Sequence record: ON470586.1
Reading direction: 5' to 3' (one strand)
Length of the DNA stretch: 21,467 nt
Origin: Escherichia phage vB_EcoS-611R1
Positions 3,621 through 17,982 of this stretch are shown here, piece after piece. A model generated the notes under the pieces. It had not been told where the DNA came from and did no database searches. It saw only the letters and a list, made by a program, of their open reading frames with translations. How positions within the stretch are numbered: the first letter of the stretch is position 1; each line of letters starts with the position of its first letter. The position numbers and the translations under genes are program-made.

Positions 3621-4294
3621 TCACTGAGACACTATTAAAAGCGCGTTTTCCAGTCCAGCAAATGGATCTGATACGCCTTCTGTCTGCTCCTTCTCCCACT
3701 GAAGAAGCGCATCATTCAGTGGCACTTTGACCCCCTGCGCACCGTAAACAGCTGAAACAATCTGGGCAGCCCGGATATCAGCCCGTTCGTCCCCCAGCGG
3801 GCTGAACCTGTCAAATTCTGCCCACATCATGATTTCTGATGCGGACATTTCCCGGCGTAACTCTGACAATGTGCGCCCCATCCTGAGCGCCAGCATCATC
3901 AGAAAACGCATCCCCGGAAGCGCTACTTTTTTTTAACCTCGCCGGCATCACTGATTAGTTCCAGAGACTGCCGAAGAAGCCGCGCATGCACCGGGCCATA
4001 CACGGCAATCACCTGTTCACGATCATCCTCTGAAAATACAGGTTGCAGTCCGGTATCACACAGAACATCGATGAACAGTTCAACATCCGCTTCCAGATTT
4101 CGGCGGGCGCGCTCCGCAACGGATAACGGTGTCTCATCATCTTTTGCTTTAACGATCTCCTGCCAGCGCAACCAGGCTTCTGCAGAAGGTTCCCGTAATA
4201 CAACCGTTGCCCCTTCCCATTCAGGCACATCAACAGTTTTATGGCGAAACCCCGACATCGTTGCCAGTGCCAGATTACGGATATTTTTAGTCAT
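3621..4294 (-). CDS. tail assembly chaperone G-T fusion, made by -1 programmed frameshift
   Basis: The G frame ends GEVKKK-stop at 3923-3925. The mRNA reads GUU AAA AAA AAG UAG, which contains the slippery heptamer A_AAA_AAG (3926..3932). A -1 slip enters the frame of ORF 3621..3911 (MRFLMMLALRMGRTLSELRREM...), exactly as in lambda G/GT. Confidence 0.75.
3923..4294 (-). CDS. tail assembly chaperone G
   Basis: ORF 3923..4309; the likely start is the internal ATG at 4294 (MTKNIRNLALATMSG...), preceded by AGGA. It lies between the major tail protein and T, and ends in the frameshift site. Confidence 0.75.
   Translation of the reverse strand: MTKNIRNLALATMSGFRHKTVDVPEWEGATVVLREPSAEAWLRWQEIVKAKDDETPLSVAERARRNLEADVELFIDVLCDTGLQPVFSEDDREQVIAVYGPVHARLLRQSLELISDAGEVKKK
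3926..3932 (-). other. -1 ribosomal frameshift slippery site A_AAA_AAG
   Basis: Heptamer sits immediately 5' of the G stop codon. The -1 frame is open through the T ORF; the junction would read ...GEVKKK/VALPGMRFLMM... Confidence 0.7.
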
Positions 4295-7832: not shown

Positions 7833-8432
7833 TTATGCATTAAGAAGGGTCAAAAGACGCTCACGCGCCATTCGTTCGTTAACAGCTTTCTTCAGCGCAC
7901 CACTCGCCCGCGCTTCCTGCCAGGCTTTCATTGAGCGGACACCAGAGTCTGCGTCCTGATAGGCCGGATATGTCACCGGGCTGACGTCATACAGACGAGA
8001 AATGCGCGTGATTTCCCGGATAACAATCCCCTCGTCGTCTTCATACCAGCTCTCTCCGTCACGGGCGACACGAAACGCGAACGAGGACTGATTAATGTCA
8101 CCACGCAACATTGGAGACAGCACCAGGTCACAAATAGTCGGAGTATCCGGTGCAACAATGTCATAACGTAAACCGCGTTCATCCACCGACAATGACAACG
8201 TGCCGGCAGAACTTCGTCCGAGAATGAAATTAGGATCATGATTAAACAAGCCACGTACATCATCATTCAGTACATCATCAAAAGCCCCCGGCTTGATGAT
8301 TTCACGAAATCCCCACAGAGGTTCTGAACGACTGTTAAATACCGAGCCATACCCCAGAATGTGGGTCGGGGCATTATCATATTGTTCCGCCCGCACCTCC
8401 CCGCTGTAACAGCGCGTTTCACGGTCATTCAT
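7833..8432 (-). CDS. prohead maturation protease (HK97 family)
   Basis: 199-aa ORF between portal and major capsid, overlapping the portal stop, consistent with the HK97-type protease. Confidence 0.75.
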   Translation of the reverse strand: MNDRETRCYSGEVRAEQYDNAPTHILGYGSVFNSRSEPLWGFREIIKPGAFDDVLNDDVRGLFNHDPNFILGRSSAGTLSLSVDERGLRYDIVAPDTPTICDLVLSPMLRGDINQSSFAFRVARDGESWYEDDEGIVIREITRISRLYDVSPVTYPAYQDADSGVRSMKAWQEARASGALKKAVNERMARERLLTLLNA

Positions 8433-12674: not shown

Positions 12675-13214
12675 ATGGATATTAAAGATAAAATCAATAC
12701 CATTTTGTTATGTGACATTGCCATCCACCTAGGTATCGAAACTGATATTGATCCACAGCTTGTTAAATATGCTGTGTCATCTGGTAATGATTGGGTTATC
12801 AAGGCCGAATATTCACATTTGGATGTTGACGAACCAAGTAAAGAAGATCGTGATTTTGTTACTGCTGTCTTGAATATGTATCGCGGACTTTCCAATGCTT
12901 TCAGGAAACTTAGTGATGACGAGCAAAAAGAATTAGTCCGTGACCATCATCTAAAAATACATGATGGGGCAATTCAGCTCCCAGGTTTCGACGGTAATAA
13001 TGAATGCGATTACTTCAGTATCATTGAGGCATATCAGAAAATTGATCGCTTCCCCGAACAGAAACAGCCCATTGCCAATACTCATTCACGTACAGAACAT
13101 CTCTATAACGCAATGCTTGATGAGTTTAAGAAAATTGACGCTGTAAATCGAAGCTGGGATTTATCGAAGGAAGAACTGGCATCCATTCTTTCCACAGCTC
13201 CACGCAGTTTCTAA
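12675..13214 (+). CDS. YfbU-family-like protein (tentative), cargo/moron gene
   Basis: 179-aa ORF on the strand opposite to all phage late genes, with RBS GAGGG 7 nt before the ATG. It is AT-rich by hand count. The C-terminal two thirds resemble my recollection of E. coli YfbU (UPF0304); this is unverified. Confidence 0.5.
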   Translation: MDIKDKINTILLCDIAIHLGIETDIDPQLVKYAVSSGNDWVIKAEYSHLDVDEPSKEDRDFVTAVLNMYRGLSNAFRKLSDDEQKELVRDHHLKIHDGAIQLPGFDGNNECDYFSIIEAYQKIDRFPEQKQPIANTHSRTEHLYNAMLDEFKKIDAVNRSWDLSKEELASILSTAPRSF

Positions 13215-13604: not shown

Positions 13605-13645
13605 ACCGGCGAATCTTTAGCGGATTATCCTTGGCCGGTTTTTAT
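13605..13645 (+). terminator. plus-strand terminator-like structure before the Rz stop
   Basis: Stem ACCGGC/GCCGGU enclosing a 23-nt loop that contains a 4-bp inner stem, followed by TTTTTA on the plus strand. It would stop plus-strand read-through from the cargo region into the lysis genes. Confidence 0.3.
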
Positions 13646-14124
13646 CTGAGACATTGCTCACGAATGTATAGCTGTGCCCCTTCCAGTTGCTTCTGCATCG
13701 TCATCAACCGTTCTCTGAGGGTGAAATAATCCCGTTCAGCGGTGTCTGCCAGTCTGGGGCTGGTTGCATTATCCACGCTGGTGGGTCCGGTGGCTTCACG
13801 CACGGCTGCGGAGCAACTGGCATTGACCCGCAGGCGCTTACGACCAGCGGCAACATCAGCGCGCAGAGTTTCATTTTCAGCTTTCGCATTGGCTAATTCT
13901 CTCGAGTACTTTGCATCGAGCGCAGCAACATCACGCTGACGCTGCTGCATGTCAGCGATGGTGGCGGTCAGCTGCTTCAGCTCACTGACTTTTTTATCAC
14001 GCTGTTCTTTGTAGGTGATGGCGTTATCACGGTAATGATTGACCGCCCACGACAGGCAGACGATGATGCAGATAACCAGAGCATAAATAATCGCGGCGAC
14101 TCTGCTCACTGATCTATTCCCCAA
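13642..14124 (-). CDS. Rz (i-spanin)
   Basis: 160-aa ORF with an N-terminal transmembrane segment ([20 protein letters not shown]) and a coiled-coil periplasmic domain; it overlaps the endolysin 3' end and has Rz1 embedded in the +1 frame. Confidence 0.8.
13704..13889 (-). CDS. Rz1 (o-spanin lipoprotein), embedded in Rz
   Basis: 61-aa ORF lying wholly inside Rz in another frame. It has a signal peptide with lipobox LVVSAC and a proline-rich mature part ([16 protein letters not shown]...). Confidence 0.8.
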
Positions 14125-14639: not shown

Positions 14640-14702
14640 GGATATTTATCAGGATTTATCGGTTTCTGCCCACGGACAGGTTTATCTGTTCCGGTCAGTG
14701 AC

Positions 14703-15053
14703 TTAAGGTTGTGATTCCGGAGGAGTCTTCAGAGAACCAGTAATTCTTCCTGGTAGCTTTCCTTTGTAGGTTATCCACACATTCTGCGCCTCTAAAATTA
14801 CGGGGCGCTTTTCCGGCGACTGCTCATCCCCTTCACATAACCCGGCAGCAACATCCAGGAAGACCTGTCTGATGCTCCTTCTGGCTGCTGCCTCATAAAA
14901 CTCCAGCGCGGCACCTTCAACACGGTCCAGCGAGATGTCCAGGTCAAAAATTTCACCGTCAAAGCGTTTTTTGTCCCGTAACGCTAAAGTTACCGTAACT
15001 TTATTCTCAAAATTGCGGATCCCTTTCACAATCAGTTCATAGTTTTGAGTCAT
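14703..15053 (-). CDS. uncharacterized protein inside the lysis cassette (possibly YdfR/DUF1327-like)
   Basis: 116-aa ORF that exactly fills the gap between the pinholin stop (15058) and the endolysin start (14639). It has no hydrophobic segments. I recall ydfR occupying this position in the E. coli Qin prophage; the family name is from memory. Confidence 0.55.
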   Translation of the reverse strand: MTQNYELIVKGIRNFENKVTVTLALRDKKRFDGEIFDLDISLDRVEGAALEFYEAAARRSIRQVFLDVAAGLCEGDEQSPEKRPVILEAQNVWITYKGKLPGRITGSLKTPPESQP

Positions 15054-15057
15054 TGAA

Positions 15058-15273
15058 TTACTCTCCCCGTGCAGCCTTACGCTTGTCTTCTCTGATTTTG
15101 AAGTACAGATTTGTCAGATAAGTCAGGAAGCCCAGAACCAGACTCCCCAGTACACCAATCGCAGCCCACTGTGACGGACTGACCTGATCAAGCCACTGTA
15201 AAAACCAGTAGCCAGCACTGCCTGCGGAGGTGCCGTAGGCAATGCCCGTTGAAATTTTGTCCATGGATTTCAT
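15058..15273 (-). CDS. pinholin (phage 21 S-type class II holin) with dual-start motif
   Basis: [71 protein letters not shown] closely matches my recollection of S21/EssD-type pinholins, including the Met1-Lys-Ser-Met4 antiholin/holin dual start. The ORF-track extension to 15372 starts at GTG and is unlikely to be translated. Confidence 0.85.
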
Positions 15274-15410: not shown

Positions 15411-15439
15411 GCCCGTATCCATATGCGGGCTTTTTTTTT
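15411..15439 (+). terminator. plus-strand intrinsic terminator
   Basis: Hairpin GCCCGTAT-CCAT-ATGCGGGC (8 bp including one G-T pair) followed by T9 on the plus strand. Confidence 0.5.
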
Positions 15440-15714: not shown

Positions 15715-15791
15715 TGGCGCGTTGTACTGGATTCGAACCAGTGACCGATTGCTTAGAAGGCAATTGCTCTGTCCGGTTGAGCTAACAACGC
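15715..15791 (-). tRNA. tRNA-Arg (anticodon UCU)
   Basis: Hand-folded 77-nt cloverleaf on the minus strand: acceptor GCGTTGT/ACAACGC, D stem GCTC/GAGC, anticodon stem ATTGC/GCAAT with loop CTTCTAA, T stem ACTGG/CCAGT with loop TTCGAAT, then an encoded CCA. Confidence 0.8.
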
Positions 15792-15804
15792 AGGGTACAG
15801 ATAA

Positions 15805-15881
15805 TGGACCGCCATCGAGGACTCGAACCCCGCGCAACCAGCTTCGAAGGCTGGCGCTCTATCATGATGAGCTAATGGCGG
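15805..15881 (-). tRNA. tRNA-Arg (anticodon UCG by hand fold)
   Basis: 77-nt cloverleaf: acceptor CCGCCAT/ATGGCGG, D stem GCTC/GAGC, anticodon stem CCAGC/GCTGG with loop CTTCGAA, T loop TTCGAGT, encoded CCA. The D loop lacks the usual GG, so the call needs tRNAscan-SE confirmation. Confidence 0.65.
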
Positions 15882-15888
15882 TATGTGA

Positions 15889-15965
15889 TGGTGGCCCTTG
15901 CTGGATTTGAACCAGCGACCTGGCGATTATAACTCGCTCTCATCATTTAGCTAAAATGGCTGGGG
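15889..15965 (-). tRNA. tRNA-like element, ileZ/ileX-like, possibly degenerate (pseudo-tRNA or atypical tRNA-Ile UAU)
   Basis: The 3' half matches tRNA-Ile2 (ileX) as I recall it (..GGTCGCTGGTTCAAATCCAGCAAGGGCCACCA). The anticodon arm is about 4 nt short relative to ileX (GAGTTATAATCGCC) and the acceptor 5' strand (AGCCATT) mispairs at two positions. Confidence 0.4.
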
Positions 15966-16085: not shown

Positions 16086-17030
16086 ATGATTTTTCTCAAG
16101 AATGGCGAAAGTTTTATTCGCGTGAATGACTGGGCAGAAATTCAGGCGAGAGAGTCTTACTATCCCAAATTAGAGTTAAATGATCAGCAACTCTCTGACG
16201 TTTTTGGTTACTACGATGACCTACCAGAGGAAATTCCATGTGGAAAATCAAATTGCCGCAAAGGGCATAAAAAGGGATTTCTGGTAGTTACGAAAGAAGG
16301 ATTTGAAACGAATATCGGCCATGTATGTGGAACTAATGTTTTTGGTATAGCATTTGATAATTTAGCAATAGAACTTTGCAGAAAAGCAGATTTCCATCGC
16401 TTACTTACCGCACTTAAAGAGGCAAAAGATGATATTTTTAGCTATTACAAACTCAAAGCCAAAATCGAATCTGGGCGTCCATCACTAACTGAGGTTGCTC
16501 ATAGAATACTTGACATGAAAGACCCTAAAATCATCGGGCGTGCGGCTTATCAAACATTGAAAAAGATGGCTGCTTCTGGTGATGGGCGTGTTTTCCGCTC
16601 AAGATTAAAAAATACAGAAGAGCTAGAACTGGACGAAATTATGTCCCAGAAGCAAACAAGCGACTCAGCTCCAAAAGTTAACAACAAAAACAAAACCGTA
16701 AATGAACTTATTGGGGTAATACAATACCCTGAATGCTTGCTGAATGATTATGACATTGCTCTTCTTTATGAAAGAGATATAAAAATGGTTCTGGAAAAAT
16801 TAAACAAATGTACCCCAGATGAATTGACTGAAAGAGAGGTGTTGTCTTTTGGAATAAAGGTTTCAAGATTAAGAGAACGCTTTAACTTTGTTCAGGAACG
16901 CTTAGAAAAATCCAGGGTTTTTGCAACAAGAGAAAACCTTAAACCTTTACGTGCATTACTTAACATTCAGAAATCTGTAAGCAATAAAGACAAATTACTA
17001 TTTAAGAAATTTATGGAAAATTTACCATAA
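16086..17030 (+). CDS. uncharacterized protein (314 aa), AT-rich cargo gene in the Q-to-lysis moron hotspot
   Basis: Opposite strand to every flanking phage gene, with RBS AAGGA 7 nt before the ATG and a hairpin terminator right after the stop. Hand-counted GC is about 38-42% against about 52% in a capsid gene sample. The N-terminus has a Cys/His cluster (PCGKSNCRKGHKKG...NIGHVCG); the rest is Lys/Glu-rich and likely helical. I recognise no family. Confidence 0.75.
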   Translation: MIFLKNGESFIRVNDWAEIQARESYYPKLELNDQQLSDVFGYYDDLPEEIPCGKSNCRKGHKKGFLVVTKEGFETNIGHVCGTNVFGIAFDNLAIELCRKADFHRLLTALKEAKDDIFSYYKLKAKIESGRPSLTEVAHRILDMKDPKIIGRAAYQTLKKMAASGDGRVFRSRLKNTEELELDEIMSQKQTSDSAPKVNNKNKTVNELIGVIQYPECLLNDYDIALLYERDIKMVLEKLNKCTPDELTEREVLSFGIKVSRLRERFNFVQERLEKSRVFATRENLKPLRALLNIQKSVSNKDKLLFKKFMENLP

Positions 17031-17166: not shown

Positions 17167-17982
17167 TCAGTAACTCGTTGCCTTCTCAAATTCTCTAGCC
17201 GCATGCCGCTCACCTTGATGCAGGATATCAATCAATTTTTCATAGAATGGTTTCCAATTGCGCGACCATGAAGACTGGTGCAGATCGGGAATGTATATTT
17301 GAATAGCTCGATGAACATTAGCTGATTTGATAGATACGAATCCCTTTCCACTACAACGCTCGCAGATTTTAAACACTGGCACACCACGCTCGCTTGTGGC
17401 TTTGCGGTCCAGTACCTCTCCCTTTCCACCACAACGACACCTGGCACTTATCACTCCCTTCCCTTTACATACATCGCAAACGACTGGTACAACTTCCGTT
17501 ACCTCTGTCCATTTTTCCCAGTCTGACGGTCGAACAGCACGGGAGCGACTGGCCCAATATGGTGCTTTACCCCATGGGTATGAAACCTTACGAATGACCT
17601 GCTTACGGGGTGTTAGTCCGGTACCACTGCAACTATGGCATGTTACGCTGGTGGCCGCCGATCGGGAATACTCAGCAAAAGCAAACTGAGCCAGTACCAG
17701 CATACACCAGCCAAATTCACCACCAGCTGCTTTACGCACATTCTTCGGTGCAATTTCCATCGCGTGACGCGCCAGCGCCTGGACTGCCATCTGCTCATCA
17801 GTCTTGCTGATACCGGCCTTCCCGAAGAAGGCCGCCAGGCCAAACCGCTCACGATTACTGGTGGTACCAATAGCCGCCATAACATCGGTGCCTGTAAGAC
17901 GTTCCGGAGAGGTTCCTTTCACATCGTCGCCGATATACATTCCCTGAGGACTGAAGTATTTTAGCGATGCCTCAAGCTTCAT
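17167..17982 (-). CDS. Q-like late antiterminator candidate with four CxxCxGxG zinc-finger repeats (QuuQ/YdfT-like)
   Basis: 271-aa ORF with the motifs CHSCSGTG, CDVCKGKG, CRCGGKG and CERCSGKG. It sits immediately upstream of the PR'/tR'-like unit and the lysis genes, and its start overlaps the stop of the preceding gene. The family name is from memory. Confidence 0.55.
   Translation of the reverse strand: MKLEASLKYFSPQGMYIGDDVKGTSPERLTGTDVMAAIGTTSNRERFGLAAFFGKAGISKTDEQMAVQALARHAMEIAPKNVRKAAGGEFGWCMLVLAQFAFAEYSRSAATSVTCHSCSGTGLTPRKQVIRKVSYPWGKAPYWASRSRAVRPSDWEKWTEVTEVVPVVCDVCKGKGVISARCRCGGKGEVLDRKATSERGVPVFKICERCSGKGFVSIKSANVHRAIQIYIPDLHQSSWSRNWKPFYEKLIDILHQGERHAAREFEKATSY

Follow-up and report, generated by a model that had tools for sequence, protein, structure and literature searches.

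An optional YdfR/DUF1327-family gene lies between the pinholin and SAR-endolysin genes of an Escherichia coli lambdoid prophage

Introduction

Phage 21 lysis has been reconstituted with the genes S, R, and Rz/Rz1, which suffice on their own. What, then, is the role of an additional 116-codon gene that sits between the pinholin (S) and SAR-endolysin (R) genes of an E. coli prophage? A preliminary description of DNA from Escherichia phage vB_EcoS-611R1 (sequence record ON470586.1) drew attention to this gene on the basis of the nucleotide sequence. We analyzed the gene within the whole 21,467-nucleotide stretch of that record (hereafter, the window), examining its identity, its junctions, its relatives, and the functions that its product might serve. 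The gene lies inside one of the best-studied lysis systems, and the locus presents a clean minimal allele of it, comprising an N domain plus a middle module. Many Stx1 and Stx2c phages also carry the gene in their late operon, near the genes that release toxin and virions.

Results

The lysis cassette and its additional gene

The window belongs to a lambdoid prophage of E. coli whose late operon runs along the minus strand. In minus-strand order, the relevant features are:

17167-17982, Q antiterminator gene
15715-15881, two tRNA-Arg genes, the only tRNAs called by ARAGORN in the window
15058..15273 (-), S21-type class II holin (pinholin) gene S, 71 aa, dual-start MKSM; PF04971 'Bacteriophage P21 holin S', E 1.3e-35
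14703..15053 (-), YdfR/DUF1327-family gene, ATG start, 116 codons plus stop; from the ORF list and Pfam PF07041
14106..14639 (-), SAR-type lysozyme gene R, 177 aa; PF00959, E 1.4e-24
13642..14124 (-), Rz i-spanin ORF; PF03245, E 1.6e-49
13704-13889 (-), Rz1 o-spanin ORF, embedded in Rz; PF06085, E 1.4e-18
beyond Rz/Rz1 along the minus strand, HNH, P27-type small terminase, and HK97-like head and tail genes

In the related prophage L001, the same holin is labeled 'class II holin family protein'. Lysozyme R has a Gly/Ala-rich, weakly hydrophobic N-terminus (Kyte-Doolittle maximum 1.87), and E35, D44, and T50 can be read from its sequence. We take this combination to be the SAR-endolysin pattern of phage 21 R. 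The catalytic domain of a SAR lysozyme is periplasmic.

The ORF list places a 116-aa reading frame between pinholin and SAR endolysin exactly where the preliminary description had put it. The same description held that this frame fills the S–R gap precisely, which is correct on the S side, where the ORF starts 4 nt past the S stop, but not on the R side, where it ends 63 nt ahead of the R ATG.

The gene encodes a soluble member of the YdfR/DUF1327 family

A Pfam check for DUF1327, suggested in the preliminary description, was clearly positive: the protein matches PF07041 over residues 1-112 with 145.1 bits against a cut-off of 25 (E 7.5e-43). Its two PHROG matches, 406 and 2091, are both labeled 'unknown function', and an NCBIfam search with the protein gave no match. 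E. coli 98198 encodes an identical (100%) ORF with the same neighbors, annotated in RefSeq as 'YdfR family protein' (WP_000193280.1). The locus thus adds no new entity – the family is known (Pfam DUF1327, NCBI 'YdfR family') and the allele is already annotated – and what can be refined is the earlier picture of the gene, which proves to be optional, to be modular with a fixed S-side junction, to capture a Shine-Dalgarno (SD) element embedded in S, and to have relatives in tail modules.

The N domain is under purifying selection, with dN/dS of 0.2-0.4 between deep allele classes (at a dS of 1.3-2, which is saturated), and its alleles are deeply diverged (dN about 0.44). The Pfam score, the dN/dS values, and hundreds of syntenic copies rule out a chance or antisense ORF artefact. 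Two observations had been named as ones that would count against a conserved gene at this position, namely a lack of homologues there and an unconserved frame; homologues occupy the same slot, and the dN/dS range points to a conserved frame.

The description of the protein as soluble also holds. Its highest 19-residue Kyte-Doolittle mean is 0.69, versus 1.7-1.9 for the holin and the SAR segment; it has no transmembrane segment, and its pI is 5.5. The GC content of the gene is 47.3%, versus 50.1% for the window. We regard its identity as a YdfR/DUF1327 family member, together with the architecture described below, as practically certain. The ORF product is a small soluble cytoplasmic protein, encoded by an optional accessory gene of the late operon in enterobacterial lambdoid phages.

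A conserved N domain is joined to exchangeable modules

Alignments and an AF2 model divide the gene into three parts:

14826..15053 (-), N domain, the DUF1327 core, codons 1-76 (alignments, AF2 model)
14718..14822 (-), middle module, codons 78-112, SPEKRPVILEAQNVWITYKGKLPGRITGSLKTPP (alignment A1)
14703..14717 (-), variable tail ESQP plus stop (mosaic breakpoint after codon 112)

In the AF2 model, the N domain (pLDDT 87.5) consists of three antiparallel strands (E5-14, E18-27, and E33-43) followed by one long helix (H50-71). A domain of about 72 aa with a Y-E-L-x-V strand and an invariant Y53-E54 at the start of the helix is present here (alignments A1-A3). This is the sole part common to all family members, and it also occurs alone as proteins of 72-76 aa. 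The ancestral stand-alone unit of the family is this beta-beta-beta-alpha domain of about 75 aa.

The middle module (EKRPVILEAQNVWITYKGKLPGRITGSLKTPP) is nearly invariant among many E. coli members (alignment A1) and has no confident predicted structure (pLDDT below 50). Its dS is 0.04-0.26 between lineages whose N domains differ at a dS of 1.3-2, from which we conclude that recombination has exchanged the module. In K-12 YdfR, Evi, and mEp460 it is either absent or degraded. What follows codon 112 varies: ESQP in the window, KW, EF, or LA elsewhere, or extensions of 60-150 aa. Extended forms reach 161-268 aa, and tails across the family range from 0 to about 190 aa.

Comparison with phage 2H10 locates the mosaic edges. 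Homology between the two stops at position 14718 and resumes at 14666 (27 nt before R), with a 51-nt unique segment of the window standing in for 510 nt. The R-proximal 27 nt are conserved among the window, mEp460, H-19B, and 2H10. The S–R interval is a mosaic hot spot in which the S-proximal edge is fixed and the R-proximal side is fluid.

The closest characterized comparison is YdfR of K-12 (b1555, P76160), from the Qin cryptic prophage. The preliminary description had placed ydfR between the holin and lysozyme genes of Qin, and the K-12 order essQ-ydfR-rrrQ bears this out. Like the gene in the window, ydfR begins 4 nt after an S21-type holin gene, precedes a lysozyme gene, and encodes a PF07041 protein; the N domains are 81% identical over residues 1-74. 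In contrast, K-12 YdfR (103 aa) has an unrelated C-terminal third with a different tail and no middle module. The Qin arrangement – essQ, 4 nt, ydfR, a 4-nt overlap, rrrQ, and rzpQ/rzoQ – also differs from the window in lacking the 63-nt spacer.

Shiga-toxin and lambdoid phages encode longer relatives. The H-19B ORF, Stx2 phage 86 orf5, BP-4795, 2H10 gp52, and mEp460 gp55 occupy the same slot with an N domain of the same class or a sister class, and most DUF1327 proteins of Stx/lambdoid phages share the middle module with the window. Through added coiled-coil-like and other modules their lengths span 72 to 268 aa, and the window carries the shortest 'N + middle + ESQP' form. Unlike the window, some of these cassettes have an extra opposite-strand ORF before R.

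The inserted gene uses a ribosome-binding site embedded in S

The two junctions of the gene differ in their translation signals:

15061..15068 (-), Shine-Dalgarno GGGGAGAG inside the last S codons, serving the DUF1327 gene; anti-SD duplex -8.6 kcal/mol
14640..14702 (-), 63-nt spacer before R, with no SD; anti-SD duplex +0.3 kcal/mol

The element GGGGAGAG sits 7 nt before the ATG of the DUF1327 ORF. In phage 933W, which is without the insert, the same SD element precedes R, and R starts 4 nt after S. Among 80 IMG/VR relatives, the 4-nt spacing from S to the ATG is kept in 79 and the 63-nt spacing before R in 62. The insert has therefore captured the strong S-embedded ribosome-binding site, and R has to initiate from an A/U-rich, SD-less leader. 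By contrast, the DUF1327 stop overlaps the R start (ATGA) in Qin and Tritos.

A consensus scan of positions 14640-15075 found no sigma-70-like promoter and no intrinsic terminator flanking the ORF. We also considered a regulatory RNA or terminator within the 63-nt spacer and rejected it, as the spacer folds no better than shuffled sequences (z-score -0.30) and contains no consensus sites. The DUF1327 gene is transcribed within the Q-dependent late transcript, and its protein is translated from the SD embedded in the 3' end of the pinholin gene. Cassettes without the insert have the endolysin gene in exactly that slot; with the insert, R is displaced to a position behind the SD-less spacer. A probable secondary effect in cis is that the insert alters the translational context of R and possibly the holin:endolysin ratio.

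The gene is common in E. coli and optional for the cassette

A megablast search found the gene in about four of five complete E. coli genomes (4305 of 5426), at 8347 places and in up to 8 copies per genome. The family itself is small and to date known only from enterobacteria: when 1.84 billion cluster representatives were searched exhaustively with HMMER, 85 clusters emerged, word-indexed searches yielded 320 and 239 proteins, and the source organisms, wherever named, are Escherichia, Shigella, Citrobacter, Yersinia, or Sodalis.

Where the gene is part of a lysis cassette its position is strict. In nine E. coli phages that we inspected (mEp460, Stx2 phage 86, Evi, Stx1_499, H-19B, 2H10, PPyecE_EH1910, Tritos, and PhiR12_2), the DUF1327 start always lies 4-5 nt after S. 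Because R of 933W starts exactly where the DUF1327 gene starts here, the gene is optional for an S21-type cassette. Nor is the family bound to a holin/endolysin pair: homologues occur in tail modules, and among phage records DUF1327 is found in 100 versus 437 for the S21-type holin, such that about 23% of S21-type cassettes carry it. The preliminary description of a conserved lysis-cassette passenger agrees with the Pfam match, with Qin of K-12, and with every E. coli lambdoid phage inspected.

The H-19B record (AF034975.3; locus L094, 1801-2145) leaves a 114-codon DUF1327 ORF between S and R unannotated.

Distant relatives reside in tail modules

Family members of 72-94 aa, about 25% identical to the N domain of the window, are located in tail modules rather than lysis cassettes. 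Their positions vary:

after the tape-measure gene, Citrobacter stand-alone DUF1327
just before gpL, Sodalis stand-alone DUF1327
after gpL and before gpK, metagenomic stand-alone DUF1327
before gpJ, a further stand-alone DUF1327 locus
at about 4001-4285 in most loci, tail-module DUF1327 genes of lambda-like tail modules (L006-L013, L099-L102)
L103 4001-4517 and L104 1305-1788, tandem DUF1327 ORFs after a PF16080 holin

Behind each tail-module DUF1327 gene comes a small unrelated ORF, in most cases on the opposite strand. We considered a conserved two-gene module and rejected it, since the opposite-strand ORFs that follow DUF1327 in the Evi, Stx2-86, Citrobacter, and metagenomic loci are mutually unrelated. 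A different lineage, represented by the last entry above, follows a holin of another family (PF16080) and has two tandem DUF1327 ORFs. Two single proteins, P0187 and P0192, contain two fused DUF1327 domains. Together with the tandem ORFs, these fusions suggest that the domain may work as a dimer.

The tail-module location of these relatives argues against a function that requires the pinholin or the SAR endolysin. DUF1327 is a small accessory gene of late operons, established at various junctions that tolerate insertion, and does not encode a dedicated lysis protein.

Resemblance to known accessory proteins is limited

Small accessory proteins encoded in or near lysis cassettes are an obvious point of comparison. 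T4 RIII is a cytoplasmic antiholin, P1 LydB is encoded in such a position, and Mu releasin is an accessory lysis regulator (PMC9239132). DUF1327 shares this genomic setting but has no sequence or profile similarity to any of the three, and unlike them it has members outside lysis cassettes. More broadly, our searches revealed no homology to a known antiholin or endolysin-regulator family: Pfam returned DUF1327 only, PHROG 'unknown function', and NCBIfam nothing.

As an optional insert of patchy distribution between conserved late genes, the DUF1327 gene resembles lambda bor and lom and the 933W ant gene, which lies between R and Rz. A classic moron comes with a promoter and a terminator of its own, and the prophage expresses it. 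The DUF1327 gene has neither element (14640-15075) and is translationally wired to S. We therefore do not class it as a classic moron, even though it is optional in the manner of one, as the position of R directly after S in 933W illustrates.

Several virulent phages encode modulators of RNase E. T7 gp0.7, T4 Srd, and phiKZ Dip act on or through the C-terminal scaffold, or by phosphorylation. YdfR has instead been reported to bind the catalytic N-terminal half, and the structural match is too weak to imply homology.

Structural searches were not decisive. Foldseek of the model against BFVD gave no match at E <= 0.001, and a profile search of PDB sequences gave nothing (the best was eL18, E 0.5). 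Fold-recognition matches were only to generic beta-beta-beta-alpha pieces of RNase H-like cores and double-stranded RNA-binding domains (dsRBDs). The protein lacks the alpha-beta-beta-beta-alpha fold and the sequence-profile similarity of a dsRBD, and we do not place it among these domains.

What the DUF1327 protein may do

Functional mentions of the family in the literature are confined to one study of RNase E and RNA (PMC13232886), a streptomycin-MIC screen, and the supplement of a CPRG screen. We found no paper that ties DUF1327/YdfR to lysis. The first of these means that the label 'functionally undescribed', used in the preliminary description, is no longer fully accurate. That 2026 RNA Biol study, of the K-12 orthologue, is the one source of the RNase E/RNA link. 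Three clones of YdfR residues 1-72 were recovered in a two-hybrid screen with RNase G as bait, and the two-hybrid signal of this fragment was higher with RNase E 1-597 than with RNase G (PMC13232886). A full-length, short-linker YdfR fusion scored only with Rne1-597 (PMC13232886). FLAG-Rne1-598 co-eluted with Strep-YdfR, in a manner that may be RNA-dependent, and DNase-resistant nucleic acid was strongly enriched in the Strep-YdfR eluate (PMC13232886). Overexpression of YdfR altered few transcripts (PMC13232886).

We tentatively favor, as the best-supported mechanism though one that is less likely than not, a cytoplasmic action of the N domain on host RNase E and/or RNA late in infection; an effect on host RNA metabolism seems more probable than one on the cell envelope. 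We give it this place because the fragment that bound is the conserved N domain (81% identical here), because the protein is cytoplasmic, and because the family is untied to lysis genes. The N domain would bind RNA, the N-terminal catalytic half of RNase E, or both, in line with what has been reported for K-12 YdfR, and this binding would tune the decay or processing of late-infection transcripts; the N domain would not act on holin, endolysin, or envelope. A purely RNA-directed function does not explain why hundreds of E. coli prophages have the gene glued to the holin gene, which counts against this reading, as do the small number of transcripts altered by overexpression and the narrow scoring of the full-length fusion, though the linkage could simply mark where the insertion became fixed. 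If the RNase E/RNA lead is true, the few phage proteins that reprogram RNA decay in the host would gain a temperate-phage example, and one that works via the catalytic rather than the scaffold half. A broader version seems to us unlikely. In it, DUF1327 domains would form a group of temperate-phage effectors not recognized before, which bind RNA as well as the catalytic half of RNase E (and of RNase G). Lambdoid phages, Shiga-toxin phages among them, would make these effectors from their long late transcript in stoichiometric amounts with holin or tail proteins, and the effectors would shield or re-pattern late mRNAs during the final minutes of the cycle, just ahead of lysis.

The holin linkage invites a different reading, in which the protein is a cytoplasmic regulator of lysis timing that binds the N or C tail of the pinholin, or otherwise restrains the pinholin/SAR-endolysin pair. 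It would then be functionally like T4 RIII – a soluble antiholin that delays or sharpens triggering – and its modulation of pinholin/SAR-endolysin timing, if true, would affect the kinetics of Stx release. Consistent with such a role, all E. coli lambdoid phages and prophages that we inspected have the gene directly behind the holin gene, L103 and L104 have it behind a holin of a second family (PF16080), and the S-embedded SD ties its translation to that of S, which would give holin-proportional dosage. A Keio ydfR mutant is moreover CPRG-positive, that is, envelope-leaky (Paradis-Bleau et al. 2014, supplement of PMC3879167), and we found no essQ or rrrQ entry in the same supplement. The CPRG result points toward lysis unless it reflects a polar effect on rrrQ; such an effect is a plausible cause, because the kan cassette lies directly upstream of this SAR lysozyme gene and could drive it. 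Other observations weigh against a lysis regulator. Distant members reside in tail modules, a long way from any holin gene; roughly three in four S21-type cassettes do without the gene, and their S-R-Rz/Rz1 sets are still complete; the reconstituted phage 21 system works with those genes only; and the protein has no similarity to any PHROG or Pfam lysis family. On balance we consider lysis regulation improbable.

The gene might instead be a passenger of the late operon whose function concerns neither lysis nor RNase E, or which has none in the lytic cycle. It could encode a decoy, a counter-defence protein, or a factor that matters in superinfection or benefits the lysogen, or it could be largely selfish mosaic filler that persists at a recombination-tolerant junction. 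Several properties of the family fit this account, including its patchy, optional presence at two different moron-type hot spots of the late operon, its extreme modularity, with highly variable tails and unrelated opposite-strand ORFs alongside, its deeply diverged N-domain alleles, the existence of degraded variants such as mEp460, and its narrow extent in clusters. In addition, one screen recorded a 3-fold higher streptomycin MIC when K-12 ydfR was overexpressed (PMC12924614). Against this account, we found no PADLOC match, although the PADLOC library covers defence rather than counter-defence proteins. The purifying selection on the N domain and the large share of complete E. coli genomes that carry the gene argue for some retained function, and expression from a repressed prophage is unlikely since the gene has no promoter of its own. 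We rate a passenger of this kind as almost as likely as an action on RNase E and RNA.

Finally, the insertion could matter mainly in cis, with the protein of little consequence: capture of the SD, together with the SD-less spacer, would lower or re-time SAR-endolysin translation relative to the pinholin. The contrast in duplex energies between insert and R (-8.6 versus +0.3 kcal/mol), the use of a -8.6 SD by R itself in 933W, and the preservation of the R-proximal 27 nt across four loci are consistent with this possibility. It leaves the purifying selection on the N-domain protein unaccounted for, along with a deep conservation that extends to tail-module homologues with no endolysin gene behind them, and the ATGA overlap in Qin and Tritos is a form of coupling from which the same kind of drop in R translation would not be expected. 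We think it very unlikely that a cis effect is the main function.

Other features around the cassette

Additional insertions and remnants surround the late genes in the window and its relatives. A 314-aa ORF at 16086-17030 (+) runs counter to the late operon, with the Q antiterminator gene on one side and the tRNA genes on the other. Its GC content is 36%, versus 50% for the window, and it matched nothing in Pfam or PADLOC. The prophage of E. coli 98198 is otherwise near-identical to the window, but homology between the two stops at 15955; the ORF therefore resembles an insertion of foreign DNA, possibly a moron expressed in the lysogen or a candidate defence gene. A degraded tRNA-Ile copy is present at 15889-15964 (-); its counterpart in the related prophage L001 is intact and annotated. 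Just upstream of the holin gene, at 15411-15439 (+), is a strong terminator-like hairpin (an 8-bp stem, then T9) that points against the late operon.

On the far side of the lysis cassette, a YfbU-domain gene on the opposite strand (12675-13214, +) separates the cassette from the HNH/terminase genes and is probably an accessory insert. In the Qin-like phages 2H10 (L095), Tritos (L097), and Qin (L106), the ydfR-bearing lysis cassette is flanked by the cold-shock genes cspB, cspI, and cspF, which may explain the reported cold induction of ydfR.
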